Below, in pieces: positions 1-3,308 of a stretch of DNA of 3,308 bases. The DNA comes from an archaeon (GTDB lineage Archaea > EX4484-52 > B79-G9): contig JBDRKP010000045.1 of the NCBI GenBank assembly GCA_043813875.1, positions 1-3,308 on the forward strand, given 5' to 3'. Under the pieces are notes generated by a model. The model was not told the origin of the DNA. It searched no databases and saw only the letters and a list, made by a program, of their open reading frames with translations. The position numbers and the translations under genes were made by a program. Positions within the stretch are counted from its first letter, which is position 1, and each line of letters starts with the position of its first letter.

Positions 1-157
1 TAAGAAATACAGTATTCAGAAATTCATACAGGATGAAGCGATAATCAAGAATGAGCGAGGTAGTATGCAATTTAATTTACTGCTTCTCGCTATGAATATG
101 TCAGAAGAACAGCTTAAGAAATTCAAAGAACGGAAAGCAAAGCAGGAGACTAAGTAA
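1..157 (+). CDS. 3' end of probable type IV Csf1/Cas8-like large subunit (5'-truncated by window)
   Basis: Open frame from position 2: KKYSIQKFIQDEAIIKNERGSMQFNLLLLAMNMSEEQLKKFKERKAKQETK*, stop TAA at 155-157 overlapping the next ATG (TAATG). The identity is inferred mainly from its position directly upstream of cas11-csf2; only 51 aa are visible. Confidence 0.5.
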   Translation, partial: KKYSIQKFIQDEAIIKNERGSMQFNLLLLAMNMSEEQLKKFKERKAKQETK

Positions 158-540
158 TGCAATCAGAATGTGAAAAGCTCTCAGAGCAACTCAGACAAGA
201 TGTTGTAACAGTCATCGAAGCAGTGTGGAAATCGATTGATTGGGATAAGGTCAGTAGCAGAAGAAGAATGAAAATATATGAGGAGTATCAAAATAAAATA
301 AAAAGCGCATCTCAGGTCGGAAAGGTGAGTCATTTCTTGGAGAAACTCACTTCTAAAATGGATTGCACTCTTTCGGATACGAACTCAGCAAACGTGCTTG
401 AAATAATCAGAAATATCGAAAAAGAGGAGTTAGACCTTGAATTTCTCAATACATGCAGAAACGAGACCCAACTTTTAGTTTTGTTGATGCGAGAGAGACG
501 TGCAGAACTTAACGAAAATAGTAAACAAACAGGAGGTTGA
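157..540 (+). CDS. cas11: Cas11-like small subunit of type IV-B effector complex (127 aa, predicted all-helical)
   Basis: SD GGAG (in GCAGGAGAC) precedes ATG 157. The protein is small, charged and helical-looking (WKSIDW...IYEEYQNKIKSAS...FLEKL...LLVLLMRERR). It sits between the upstream gene and csf2, the usual small-subunit slot in IV-B loci. Confidence 0.65.
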   Translation: MQSECEKLSEQLRQDVVTVIEAVWKSIDWDKVSSRRRMKIYEEYQNKIKSASQVGKVSHFLEKLTSKMDCTLSDTNSANVLEIIRNIEKEELDLEFLNTCRNETQLLVLLMRERRAELNENSKQTGG

Positions 541-1376: not shown

Positions 1377-1390
1377 ATAATATTATAGTT

Positions 1391-1439
1391 TTAATACTAA
1401 ACGATACCTTTAAATACTTTTAGATACTTATAGAGTATT
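1391..1439. repeat. Four 10-bp-phased ATAC motifs plus one inverted copy; putative operator
   Basis: TTAATACTAA / ACGATACCTT / TAAATACTTT / TAGATACTTA, with ATAC at 1394, 1404, 1414 and 1424. AGTATT at 1434-1439 is the reverse complement of AATACT (1413-1418). Confidence 0.55.
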
Positions 1440-1441
1440 GG
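1399..1441 (+). promoter_or_regulatory. Archaeal-type promoter (BRE + TATA box) driving the small-ORF cassette
   Basis: TTTAAATA at 1409-1416 is preceded by purine-rich AAACGATA (BRE-like) in an AT-rich intergenic region. The expected start site, about 25 nt downstream (~1440), lies just before the first SD at 1457. Confidence 0.65.
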
Positions 1442-1469
1442 CAATAAGCCAAATATGGAGGAAAATAAC

Positions 1470-1598
1470 ATGAGTAAGAAAATCACAAAAGAAAAAAATA
1501 AACATGATCTTTTCGAGGGTCATGAAGCCAGGAAAATTGATTTTTCACGGGAATTAGAGAACAAATTGCTTGAGCAAAAGCTCAGGCAAAGAAAATGA
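1470..1598 (+). CDS. Small basic hypothetical protein (42 aa)
   Basis: MSKKITKEKNKHDLFEGHEARKIDFSRELENKLLEQKLRQRK*. Strong SD GGAGG at 1457-1461. Its stop abuts the next leader at 1599. Not in the ORF track. Confidence 0.7.
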   Translation: MSKKITKEKNKHDLFEGHEARKIDFSRELENKLLEQKLRQRK

Positions 1599-1614
1599 AT
1601 GGAGGAAAAATAAA

Positions 1615-1806
1615 ATGAAATGTATTTATTGCGACAAAAGCGCAACACATGTACGGGGGAGCGAAACCGCGACAGGCTCCCGCCCCGTCTGCAAAACACA
1701 TGCGCGGATGTACAATATAAAAACACCCATTATTTTTGAACAAATAATGGGAGATGTGGTAGTAACGAGGGAAATGAAAGAATGGATTAGAATAAGGGGG
1801 AAATAA
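1615..1806 (+). CDS. Small zinc-finger protein, CxxC...CxxH (63 aa)
   Basis: MKCIYCDKSATHVRGSETATGSRPVCKTHARMYNIKTPIIFEQIMGDVVVTREMKEWIRIRGK*. SD GGAGG at 1601-1605 supports ATG 1615 rather than the track's start at 1570. Confidence 0.75.
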   Translation: MKCIYCDKSATHVRGSETATGSRPVCKTHARMYNIKTPIIFEQIMGDVVVTREMKEWIRIRGK

Positions 1807-1807
1807 C

Positions 1808-1936
1808 ATGAATGATATAGATGGAATATGTCCCGAATGTCATGATGAAAAGCCTTCATTGATATATGACGAATATCGGGATGAATACATTTGTAATACA
1901 TGCGGGTTGATTATCAGAGGAAATTACTTTGAATAA
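1808..1936 (+). CDS. Stand-alone TFIIB/TFB-type zinc-ribbon protein (42 aa)
   Basis: MNDIDGICPECHDEKPSLIYDEYRDEYICNTCGLIIRGNYFE*. The pattern CPEC-x-LIYD-xx-R-x-E-x-IC-xx-CGLII matches the N-terminal zinc ribbon of archaeal TFB. SD GGGGG at 1796-1800. Not in the ORF track. Confidence 0.8.
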   Translation: MNDIDGICPECHDEKPSLIYDEYRDEYICNTCGLIIRGNYFE

Positions 1937-1979
1937 TCATAGCTGTTTTGCTTATAAAGGATAAGTAATAAAAAACAGC

Positions 1980-2130
1980 ATGAGTAAGAACTTTTGCGAA
2001 CAAAGAGGATATCGTAAAGTTGTGTACTGTACAAAACTGTATGGTATGCAGTAACGTGGAACAATGCCGACAGGATGGTATGTTCAGCAAAGAACAAATA
2101 GAGTTTCTTATTAAAGAAGGGAGACTCTAA
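1980..2130 (+). CDS. Small Cys-rich ORF with uncertain start, possibly frameshifted
   Basis: ATG 1980 gives only 24 aa (MSKNFCEQRGYRKVVYCTKLYGMQ*, stop 2052-2054). The overlapping +1 frame is open from 1984 to 2130 (VRTFANKEDIVKLCTVQNCMVCSNVEQCRQDGMFSKEQIEFLIKEGRL*), with possible starts at TTG 2020 (GAGGA at 2005-2009) or ATG 2041. Confidence 0.4.
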
Positions 2131-2159
2131 TAAAAAATAAATAATGGAGGAACAATAAA

Positions 2160-2252
2160 ATGACACCGAGCAACAATCGCACGCTCGATATTTATTTCGA
2201 TATGATGCACATTTCTGTGCACGCATTATTTTTTGCATATGACTTAGCCTAA
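2160..2252 (+). CDS. Very small hypothetical peptide (30 aa)
   Basis: MTPSNNRTLDIYFDMMHISVHALFFAYDLA*. Preceded by a consensus leader with SD GGAGG at 2146-2150. The stop falls just before the next leader. Confidence 0.5.
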   Translation: MTPSNNRTLDIYFDMMHISVHALFFAYDLA

Positions 2253-2275
2253 ACTGAACATGGAGGAAAACAAAT

Positions 2276-2560
2276 ATGAATAATAAAAAAATGATAATCG
2301 ACGGTCAAGAAATGCAGACCATAGAAAAGCCAATTCGTTGCACAAGAGCGGCTGATGGATGGTGTCAGAAGCTCTCGAAGAAAACACATTTCACAAAGGG
2401 AATATGTGAAGATGGATCCATGGTCGTGGGATCATCATGTCATGACGGCCGCCGTATGTGCGGCTATATCTACAGATATGACCAATGGAAGCAAGACATT
2501 CTTCCCTTGCTAATTGAATCGAACCGTGTCGTGTATGGGGGGGGGGTTAATGCCCTATGA
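2276..2560 (+). CDS. Hypothetical Cys-containing protein (94 aa)
   Basis: ORF in the track, with consensus leader and SD GGAGG at 2262-2266. It has five Cys residues and no family that I recognise. Confidence 0.75.
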   Translation: MNNKKMIIDGQEMQTIEKPIRCTRAADGWCQKLSKKTHFTKGICEDGSMVVGSSCHDGRRMCGYIYRYDQWKQDILPLLIESNRVVYGGGVNAL

Positions 2561-2687
2561 TATAGTTAACTGCGGAGAGCGTAAAATACAAACACTCTTC
2601 CGCATTGCTCTAAAAGATATCTGTGAAAGACATGGTATCCAAGAGGGCGATGCGGTTGAAGTTTTTATCCGCAAAAGGGAGCACTAA
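2550..2687 (+). CDS. AbrB/MazE/SpoVT-like swapped-hairpin DNA-binding protein (45 aa)
   Basis: MPYDIVNCGERKIQTLFRIALKDICERHGIQEGDAVEVFIRKREH*. RKIQ..FRI.L.....E..GI.EGD.VEV.I matches the AbrB-fold pattern. The G-tract at 2537-2546 can serve as SD. Not in the ORF track. Confidence 0.7.
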   Translation: MPYDIVNCGERKIQTLFRIALKDICERHGIQEGDAVEVFIRKREH

Positions 2688-2711
2688 CACGAGCGCGGAC
2701 ACGGAGCCAAA

Positions 2712-3308
2712 ATGACCATTCATTTTTCCGAACTTGACAAATACGGGCAGCACATCACATCTTTACAGCATGAACCTATGAAAATCACTGCATCCCTGAC
2801 AAGTCCTTATGTCAGTACAGATTACATCTTTCTCGATGCTCTAATCAGCAGCGCGGTCTGGCAGGATGTGATGGGGGAACAGGCGTTTAACATCCCTGAG
2901 AATAAATCAGATGTTTTCTATATTCCGCTGCCCATTAAACAAATCGGTACAAAAGAACCGTTCTATGCCGCATCAATTTGCTTCCCGAAGCAGGCTGTAG
3001 AGGGAACGGCGCGGTGGCGCAAGCAGACAGATATTGAAAGTAAAAAGAAAATCCGCATTGGCTCAGGAGAGTACAAACGGTACGATATGCCGATGCCGTA
3101 CACAAGCGCGGAAGAAATCATATTTTATGCGAATGGGAATAAAGAAGAAATCGAAAGGCTCTTACAATATATTCCAGGGATTGGTAAGAAAAGAACGCAG
3201 GGATATGGCAATGTTCGAAAATGGCAGGTTGAGTCATCGGAACATGATTATAGCGTAGTCAAGGATGGCATACCAATGCGTCCGATTCCTGTATCTGAGG
3301 CTGCGCAA
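2712..3308 (+). CDS. csf3: Type IV CRISPR-associated Cas5-family protein Csf3 (3'-truncated by window)
   Basis: Open to the window end (199 codons): MTIHFSELDKYGQHITSLQHEPMKITASLTSP...IFLDALI...PLPI...FYAAS...WRKQ...GSGEYKRYDMP...IIFYANGNKEEIERLLQYIPGIGKKRTQGYGNVRKWQVE...MRPIP. The Gly-rich loop IGKKRxxGYGxV and the MRPIP motif fit Csf3. SD GGAG at 2703-2706. Missed by the ORF track because it has no stop in the window. Confidence 0.85.
   Translation, partial: MTIHFSELDKYGQHITSLQHEPMKITASLTSPYVSTDYIFLDALISSAVWQDVMGEQAFNIPENKSDVFYIPLPIKQIGTKEPFYAASICFPKQAVEGTARWRKQTDIESKKKIRIGSGEYKRYDMPMPYTSAEEIIFYANGNKEEIERLLQYIPGIGKKRTQGYGNVRKWQVESSEHDYSVVKDGIPMRPIPVSEAAQ

Follow-up and report, generated by a model that had tools for sequence, protein, structure and literature searches.

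What are 1335 nucleotides (nt) of DNA doing between csf2 and csf3 in the type IV-B operon of contig JBDRKP010000045.1, and do they bear on the system in which they sit? In the available text of two sources (PMC8175902, PMC7038947), type IV-B has a core of csf1, cas11, csf2 and csf3 that is usually joined by a cysH-like gene and accompanied by no array, and its function is given as unknown, so that genes travelling or co-expressed with the Csf core are a possible clue. We analyzed a stretch of 3308 nt of this contig, called the window below; all positions are in window coordinates. With moderate confidence, we read the interval between the two genes as a lineage-specific, moron-like accessory cassette that landed exactly between the csf2 stop codon and the csf3 start codon. 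About as firmly, we place this cassette in a type IV-B operon carried by a mobile element, for which a tailed virus or provirus of archaea is the likeliest identity. The cassette looks like a rare, lineage-specific add-on and not like a conserved type IV-B partner.

Every recognizable gene of the window lies on the + strand, and the core, judged by its sequence, is a type IV-B operon in the order csf1-cas11-csf2-csf3:

2-157, + strand: 3' end of csf1 (large subunit), the last 51 residues, open at the 5' end of the window
157-540, + strand: cas11 (type IV small subunit), 127 amino acids (aa); PADLOC typeIV_Cas11, 3e-25
543-1376, + strand: csf2 (type IV Cas7), 277 aa, intact; PADLOC Csf2_0_IV, 8.7e-69
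2712-3308, + strand: csf3 (type IV Cas5), first 199 aa, open at the 3' end of the window; PADLOC Csf3_0_IV, 3e-50

An initial annotation, made from the letters and their open reading frames (ORFs), had placed the interval at 1377-2711 between csf2 and csf3. The coordinates are exact, since 1376 is the last position of the csf2 stop codon and 2712 the first of the csf3 ATG, and the PADLOC matches confirm both flanking genes. Csf2 also matched TIGR03115 (3e-18, 66 bits) and Csf3 matched TIGR03116 (4.3e-18, 66 bits); these specific matches fall under the curated cut-offs of the two NCBIfam equivalogs (130 and 140 bits, respectively). Csf2 further matched Pfam RAMPs (1.5e-5). An AGGAGG lies 6 nt ahead of the csf2 ATG, and csf3 has its own ribosome-binding site, GGAG, 7 nt ahead of its ATG. 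Csf2 (Cas7) and Csf3 (Cas5) occur together, as in type IV-B, and within the 3.3-kb window they are accompanied by a cas11-like gene and by no dinG, recD or cas10-like gene. No helicase or cas10 gene was found within this window, and repeat scans and Rfam detected no repeat array or CRISPR RNA family in it; the window stops inside csf3, ahead of any position for a cysH-like gene or an array.

We then compared the operon with its relatives. Csf2 had 165 homologues in the protein collection, the close ones aligning over their full length. A genome scan with the single Csf2 query gave no confirmed relative, and the set of loci used here, 43 in number, comprises 41 detected in species-representative genomes by an alignment-based scan and two haloarchaeal plasmids. 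Only one of the 43 is close to the window. This locus, L003 (QMOR01000255.1, 1-5455), carries csf1, cas11, csf2, csf3, a phosphoadenosine phosphosulfate (PAPS) reductase gene (cysH-like, directly after csf3; PF01507, 2.7e-31) and terminase genes, in this order. Its Csf2 shares 61% identity with that of the window, its Csf3 57% (aligned from residue 1) and its Cas11, encoded at the same position, 43%; the csf1 end of the window aligned to the C-terminus of the 231-aa L003 Csf1 (47% identity over 38 aa, E 3e-6), which is itself a PADLOC Csf1_0_IV protein (9.8e-60). In L003, csf2 and csf3 overlap by 4 nt (ATGA). Because the C-terminus of the window Csf2 and the N-terminus of its Csf3 both align fully to their L003 counterparts, the extra DNA of the window lies exactly between the two genes.

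The wider set agrees with this comparison. Both genes could be identified in 37 of the 43 loci, and in 29 of these 37 they abut, with an estimated gap of -61 to +23 nt that leaves no room for a gene; the description of the pair as normally adjacent is thereby borne out. Eight insert ORF queries gave no match in the 43 type IV loci at E up to 0.01. Searches of the phage and plasmid collections returned no match for the whole window by blastn and no significant match for any insert ORF; PADLOC assigned no insert ORF to a defence family, and an Rfam scan of the window yielded nothing at E up to 1. The ends of the insert bear no transposon-like terminal repeats or target duplications, and no repeats were seen at the two joins. 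The GC content of the insert is modestly lower than that of its flanks (38.0% versus 41.9%), with a minimum of about 27% at 1301-1500, at the left edge; the right part is flank-like at about 46%.

The insert contains the following features:

1377-1469, + strand: AT-rich leader, putative regulatory region, 93 nt, the most AT-rich part of the window
1394-1438, + strand: 10-bp phased repeat, putative operator, with ATAC at 1394, 1404, 1414 and 1424 and an inverted GTAT at 1435-1438
1470-1598, + strand: small ORF of 42 aa, Lys/Glu-rich, ATGGAGGAAAATAAC ahead of its ATG
1615-1806, + strand: small ORF of 63 aa with CxxC...CxxH, ATGGAGGAAAAATAAA ahead of its ATG
1808-1936, + strand: small ORF of 42 aa, C4 zinc ribbon of TFIIB type; PF08271, 7.3e-7
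1937-1983, + strand: stable RNA hairpin, minimum free energy -14.5 kcal/mol, z -4.14, none of 200 shuffles as stable
1980-2130, + strand: doubtful coding stretch, overlapping ORFs in two frames, 1980-2054 (24 aa) and 2020-2130 (36 aa, TTG start)
2160-2252, + strand: small ORF of 30 aa with a hydrophobic C-terminus, no family, ATGGAGGAACAATAAA ahead of its ATG
2276-2560, + strand: small ORF of 94 aa with five Cys and two His, orphan, ATGGAGGAAAACAAAT ahead of its ATG
2537-2546, + strand: homopolymer of ten G (G10) where the 94-aa and 45-aa ORFs meet
2550-2687, + strand: small ORF of 45 aa, possible truncated AbrB/MazE/SpoVT type, sub-threshold PF04014 and TIGR01439, starting behind G10

The initial annotation had counted about seven co-oriented tiny ORFs. 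Six are well supported and share the + strand, whereas the seventh, at 1980-2130, is doubtful; with the doubtful ORF included, ORFs cover about 80% of the interval (1066 of 1335 nt). Four of the small ORFs share the Shine-Dalgarno sequence ATGGAGGAA, followed by 6-7 nt and an ATG. All four GGAGG motifs of the insert sit 5-10 nt before the ATG of an ORF of 30-94 codons, and the - strand has none; in 1000 dinucleotide shuffles, such units occurred 0.037 times on average and at most twice, none reaching four. The ORFs look real because of these four GGAGG-ATG units, the zinc-ribbon match and the 63-aa ORF, whose sequence is conserved, Cys and His residues included.

The 63-aa ORF had a single homologue among 5.8 billion clusters, P0123 on a 601-nt contig, with 75% identity over 61 aa; C3, C6, C26 and H29, its four candidate ligands, are all invariant. 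It had no PDB match and no significant phage match. The 94-aa ORF found only itself in a word-index search and in phmmer (1.84 billion cluster representatives), and its Atlas scores were 0.80 or lower; three other phmmer matches were long Cys/His repeat proteins and were rejected as relatives. Structure prediction, which had been suggested for the small proteins, was made for these two and gave poor AlphaFold2 (AF2) models (predicted local distance difference test score, pLDDT, 64 for the 63-aa and 54 for the 94-aa protein), too poor for a fold search. With the 94-aa ORF an orphan, a single relative for the 63-aa ORF and no insert ORF recurring in the 43 loci, the cassette is rare. Proteins identical to the 63-aa and 94-aa products are recorded on one or more other contigs, the longest of 2073 nt and not 3308 nt; the cassette was thus apparently assembled at least once more.

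Several of the small proteins had been called zinc-binding, a claim that stands at the level of motifs: a C4 ribbon at 1808 and the CxxC...CxxH kept in the one homologue of the 63-aa ORF. The 1808 ORF has four Cys in two knuckles (CPEC 8-11 and CNTC 29-32), as expected of a ribbon. It barely reaches PF08271 (29.1 bits, gathering threshold 29.0), a model that generic zinc ribbons match too, and it also matched phrog_17221 (3.7e-6) and, far under the cut-off, the TFIIB model NF001658 (3.1e-5). This ORF begins 1 nt past the preceding stop codon, behind GGGGG. The 1470 ORF had no family in Pfam, NCBIfam, PHROGs or PADLOC and nothing in phages.

The last gene of the block had been described as an AbrB-like regulator. 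For the 45-aa ORF, this name is probable at best, and the protein is possibly truncated. The ORF matched PF04014 (E 0.027, 14.9 bits, cut-off 24.7, model positions 14-33 of 48) and TIGR01439 (E 0.0052, 16.5 bits, cut-off 28.3, model positions 3-33 of 44) and stops 4-5 residues past the matched part of both models; as a sub-threshold match to part of the domain, it falls outside PF04014 membership. It would presumably be without the last strand of the swapped-hairpin domain. Its two Atlas leads (0.79 and 0.78) were weak, pointing to clusters with PF04014 in 48% and 30% of members, respectively. No phage or plasmid match was found for it. In the PDB, its best match (E 0.11) was a histone H2B chain and not significant.

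Upstream of these genes, the leader has features of a regulatory region. The only two TTTAAATA boxes in the window, both on the + strand, lie at 1372-1379 and 1409-1416, and we take these octamers to fit the archaeal TATA-box consensus. The ATAC elements are spaced by one helical turn, and the array overlaps the second TATA-like box. Tandem Repeats Finder reported 1403-1434 with period 10, 3.2 copies, 81% matches and a score of 43. The pattern ATAC-N6-ATAC-N6-ATAC has two overlapping matches in the leader and none elsewhere in the window, and none of 200 shuffles had any. The phased repeat resembles a set of sites for a DNA-binding protein superimposed on a promoter element, and this candidate operator at 1394-1438 is testable. 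At the other end, csf3 starts 24 nt after the last small ORF, as had been noted, and no terminator-like structure was found at either edge of the cassette, towards csf2 or towards csf3; read-through is likely at both. Co-transcription of csf3 with the block, put forward in the initial annotation, is plausible because of the 24-nt spacing and the lack of a terminator in between, and we infer no more than that.

For the transcription, DNA binding and biological role of the cassette, we propose the following. The cassette would supply its own AT-rich leader, in which TATA-like boxes accompany an operator-like 10-bp repeat in helical phase, and its six real small genes and one doubtful gene would be translated from stereotyped, strong Shine-Dalgarno sites. 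The predicted products are small zinc-ribbon or Cys-rich proteins and a short, possibly truncated AbrB/SpoVT-like protein, which would be the usual small nucleic-acid-binding regulators encoded in variable regions of virus genomes, archaeal as well as bacterial. Their most likely roles are host takeover or the control of virus genes, and the phased repeats may let one of them autoregulate the cassette. Read-through transcription probably supplies csf3 from two sources, the cassette and the csf promoter further upstream. Because csf3 keeps its own ribosome-binding site and read-through is probable, the Csf complex could still be made, and insertion at a gene boundary would have left the operon undamaged.

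Which element carries this operon? The L003 large terminase was nearest to those of psiM100 and psiM2, viruses of Methanothermobacter and Methanobacterium (48-49% identity, E about 1e-117, best of 1781 records). The best plasmid matches of Csf2, out of 84 records, were haloarchaeal (33-35% identity, 2e-41 and 2e-38), and csf2 and csf3 abut there; within the phage collection, Csf2 matched a Skermania phage only (28% identity). The available text of PMC10541130 and 10.1101/2023.08.02.551345 describes csf1-cas11-csf2-csf3-cysH in archaeal tailed viruses and type IV-B operons in tailed viruses of Bathyarchaeia and Methanoperedens. Since the L003 terminase is archaeal-virus-like and type IV-B operons have been published in such viruses, we think that the window most likely derives from an archaeal tailed virus or provirus, an assignment that comes from its relatives. 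The window shares the core gene set and order with the loci of 'Fuxiviridae' of Bathyarchaeia (PMC10541130) and of the Methanoperedens virus (10.1101/2023.08.02.551345), a likeness by description of gene content and not by sequence; L003 adds to it a cysH-like gene and tailed-virus terminase genes, among them the archaeal-virus-like large terminase. What sets the window apart from these loci is the block of 1335 nt, with its six or seven small genes, that separates csf2 from csf3; the available text of the two sources makes no mention of one like it, and PMC10541130 describes a mini-array in Fuxivirus loci.

By the account in the available text of PMC3594210, a moron is a transcription unit of its own that has been inserted between genes of a phage. 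Like a moron, the cassette lies between genes that abut in L003, has a GC content below that of its flanks (by a modest difference) and its own regulatory-looking upstream region, and is patchily distributed. Unlike one, it is a multi-gene block with a putative promoter and no terminator at its end, in a host that is probably archaeal.

Several points weigh against our reading. The 62 Csf2 clusters closest to the window (P0002-P0063; 56-97% identity, all metagenomic) have contigs that lie outside the locus comparison, and a variable slot across the whole family would be compatible with that. Eight of the 37 loci, all distant, hold genes at the csf2-csf3 junction, some of them regulators, which hints that the junction tolerates cargo. 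The archaeal host comes from relatives alone, and L003 is labelled as a contig of a Bacteroidetes metagenome-assembled genome (MAG). Strong Shine-Dalgarno use is atypical of Bacteroidetes; we therefore take the label to be a binning error, and L003 is probably a mis-binned fragment of an archaeal tailed virus. With no closing terminator and csf3 only 24 nt on, the cassette is not a fully self-contained moron. The strong promoter of its own that had been claimed for the block is only partly borne out, by the TATA-like boxes and the phased repeat; at least two TTTAAATA boxes appeared in 33 of 200 shuffles, so that their count alone is not significant, and 1377-1469 holds no convincing sigma-70 promoter, the best candidate agreeing at 9 of 12 positions and overlapping a ribosome-binding site (window-wide, 10 sigma-70-like sites versus 8.0 +/- 2.6 in shuffles), so that a strong promoter is not confirmed for a bacterial host. 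In a codon-frame test trained on the csf genes, the annotated frame topped the three sense frames in all eight ORFs, but by a margin of 0-0.16 bits per codon and with antisense frames scoring alike, which is not decisive. The large-database homologue search covered the 63-aa and 94-aa ORFs, with the ORFs at 1470, 1808, 2020, 2160 and 2550 outside it. Finally, the AbrB assignment is sub-threshold and the domain seemingly truncated.

The best-surviving alternative, which we nevertheless consider unlikely, is that the block is an anti-defence operon resembling anti-CRISPR (Acr) and anti-CRISPR-associated (Aca) gene pairs, or a host-takeover operon, coupled to the Csf complex, with its last gene an autorepressor and csf3 co-regulated. 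Co-oriented small genes on a mobile element that end in a putative small DNA-binding protein, the phased repeat beside TATA-like boxes as a possible operator, and csf3 placed 24 nt downstream with no terminator between are all features that such an operon would have. Type IV-B has, moreover, been proposed to counter host CRISPR, according to the available text of PMC7038947 and 10.1101/2023.08.02.551345. One may also speculate that a free-standing TFIIB-type ribbon could in principle disturb host transcription initiation. The comparisons argue otherwise: no cassette gene recurs in the 43 type IV loci or beside variable partners, the nearest of the compared loci, L003, is without the cassette, and the largest cassette gene is an orphan. 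Searches of Pfam, NCBIfam, PHROGs and PADLOC, none of them a dedicated Acr/Aca library, found no helix-turn-helix (HTH), Acr or Aca family and no match to a defence family. The putative regulator is not of the HTH type known for Aca proteins but a sub-threshold AbrB match that looks truncated. Aca operators are inverted repeats, whereas the leader repeats are direct.

A second alternative concerns the junction itself, and we rate it as quite unlikely. It holds that csf2|csf3 is a recurrent cargo slot, in which a separately controlled module makes the supply of Csf3, and with it Csf assembly, conditional. In a fuller form, to which we give just as little weight, a separately regulated virus microprotein module that combines the phased repeats as operator with a small DNA-binding protein and a TFIIB-type ribbon standing alone would tie Csf3 supply and assembly of the type IV-B ribonucleoprotein to an early host-takeover or anti-defence programme, and one or more of its microproteins may have the Csf complex or the transcription machinery of the host as a binding partner. 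The regulatory-looking leader at the start of the insert fits this, as do the eight distant loci (L012, L013, L015, L017, L022, L033, L034 and L037; 27-32% Csf2 identity to the window) in which, as in the window, the csf2-csf3 junction is interrupted, there by an estimated 652-5464 nt. Some of these hold regulators. In L017 (Paenibacillus), 10880-12662 carries a PAS-HTH regulator between csf2 and a cas6-csf3 pair; in L013 (Paenibacillus), a histidine kinase and a LuxR-type response regulator occupy the same position (10723-14682), a layout repeated in L015 (Paenibacillus; 10873-14812). Several occupants are, on the other hand, ordinary type IV components in another order: cas6 lies between csf2 and csf3 in L022, L017 and L013, and in L034 (Lewinella MAG) a cysH-like PAPS reductase gene is found between the two genes (10936-11631; PF01507, 5.6e-13) and not after csf3. 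The remaining intervals encode GNAT and AAA proteins (L033), an ATP-grasp protein (L037) and proteins of 240 and 314 aa with no assigned family (L012). The occupants of the eight loci are thus large and unrelated to the window ORFs, and none of these loci has a small-ORF cassette at the junction. In the window itself, no terminator follows csf2, so that read-through from the csf promoter is likely.

It is very doubtful that the interval is decaying or non-coding filler, with most of its small ORFs not expressed as proteins. The weak codon-frame signal, the two overlapping frames at 1980-2130, the apparent truncation of the AbrB-like domain, the G10 run at an ORF junction and the low-confidence models of the 63-aa and 94-aa proteins would fit such decay. 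They are outweighed by the placement of all four GGAGG motifs 5-10 nt before an ORF-opening ATG (matched in none of 1000 shuffles), the ORF content of about 80%, the conservation of the 63-aa ORF at the protein level and the zinc-ribbon family match (PF08271, phrog_17221). An assembly chimera, in which metagenome mis-assembly joined the insert to the csf genes, is similarly improbable: the contig is short (3308 nt), composition falls at the left junction and the cassette genes are otherwise almost unseen, but both joins coincide exactly with gene boundaries, the csf2 and csf3 ends are intact and can be aligned to L003 from first to last residue, one strand is kept throughout, a proper ribosome-binding site for csf3 lies within the junction, no repeats mark the joins, and the identical 94-aa and 63-aa proteins occur on one or more other contigs of at most 2073 nt.

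We therefore return to the moron-like cassette and to what it says about type IV-B. The initial annotation had gone further and suggested that this may be an undescribed system coupling a type IV complex to a variable payload of microproteins. As a recurrent system, this found no support: the cassette is without a match in 43 loci, and csf2 and csf3 overlap in L003. The reading as a new system is not supported by the loci compared, and nothing in the sequences ties the small proteins to Csf function. Homologous csf2-csf3 loci, which the annotation had proposed to collect for recurrent small-ORF cassettes, are occupied at the junction in 8 of 37 cases, but none of the eight carries a small-ORF cassette. 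The opposite outcome that it had named, a one-off insertion, is approached, with insert ORFs in 0 of 43 loci, although the 62 closer Csf2 clusters stand outside that count. Because the evidence marks the extra genes as a rare add-on and no conserved partner, little can be learned from this locus about how type IV-B functions. It offers instead a clean example of gene accretion inside the Cas effector operon of a probable archaeal virus, and about one in five of the type IV loci examined (8/37) tolerate other genes at csf2|csf3. If many of the closer relatives carry cassettes at this junction, the bolder idea of a variable payload would revive.

In a literature search, we found nothing on type IV-B with cysH and AbrB or on type IV-B csf2 and csf3 with small ORFs. 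The Halomontanus plasmid locus L002 (NZ_CP135527.1) has an annotated AbrB/MazE/SpoVT gene at 8577-8867, between csf3 and a DUF3440/PAPS-reductase-like gene, and a dozen small ORFs ahead of csf1 of its type IV-B locus. Kinship of the 45-aa ORF with this AbrB gene was rejected (6/19 identities, E 0.018 in a single comparison).

The stable hairpin at 1937-1983 lies directly 3' of the third small ORF and divides the insert into halves of unlike GC. It matches no Rfam family, is followed directly by no U-tract and has no second copy. The doubtful stretch overlaps its end. Neither the 1980-2054 nor the 2020-2130 ORF has a GGAGG or another good ribosome-binding site ahead of it or a family match in Pfam, NCBIfam or PHROGs. 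The sequence around the start of the first small ORF (AAAATAACATGAGTAAGAA, 1462-1480) is found again at 1972-1990 with 89% identity, and the 1470 ORF and the doubtful 24-aa ORF would both open with Met-Ser-Lys. The repeated start context may be the remnant of a duplication, and 1980-2130 a decayed gene split over two frames. Inside the 30-aa ORF, a terminator-like hairpin at 2206-2221 is followed by a T-run (to 2234), its stability being ordinary (z -1.08); this ORF could be a leader peptide and not a protein gene.

The G10 run stands where the last two ORFs meet. With one G less, the 94-aa and 45-aa ORFs would form a single frame of about 137 codons, Cys-rich in its N-terminal part and AbrB-like in its C-terminal part; no stop codon interrupts the 45-aa frame as far back as 2514. 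The run could reflect an error in the sequenced length, act as a slippery site or just serve as a ribosome-binding site. That the run is real is favored because the identical 94-aa protein is recorded on two contigs.

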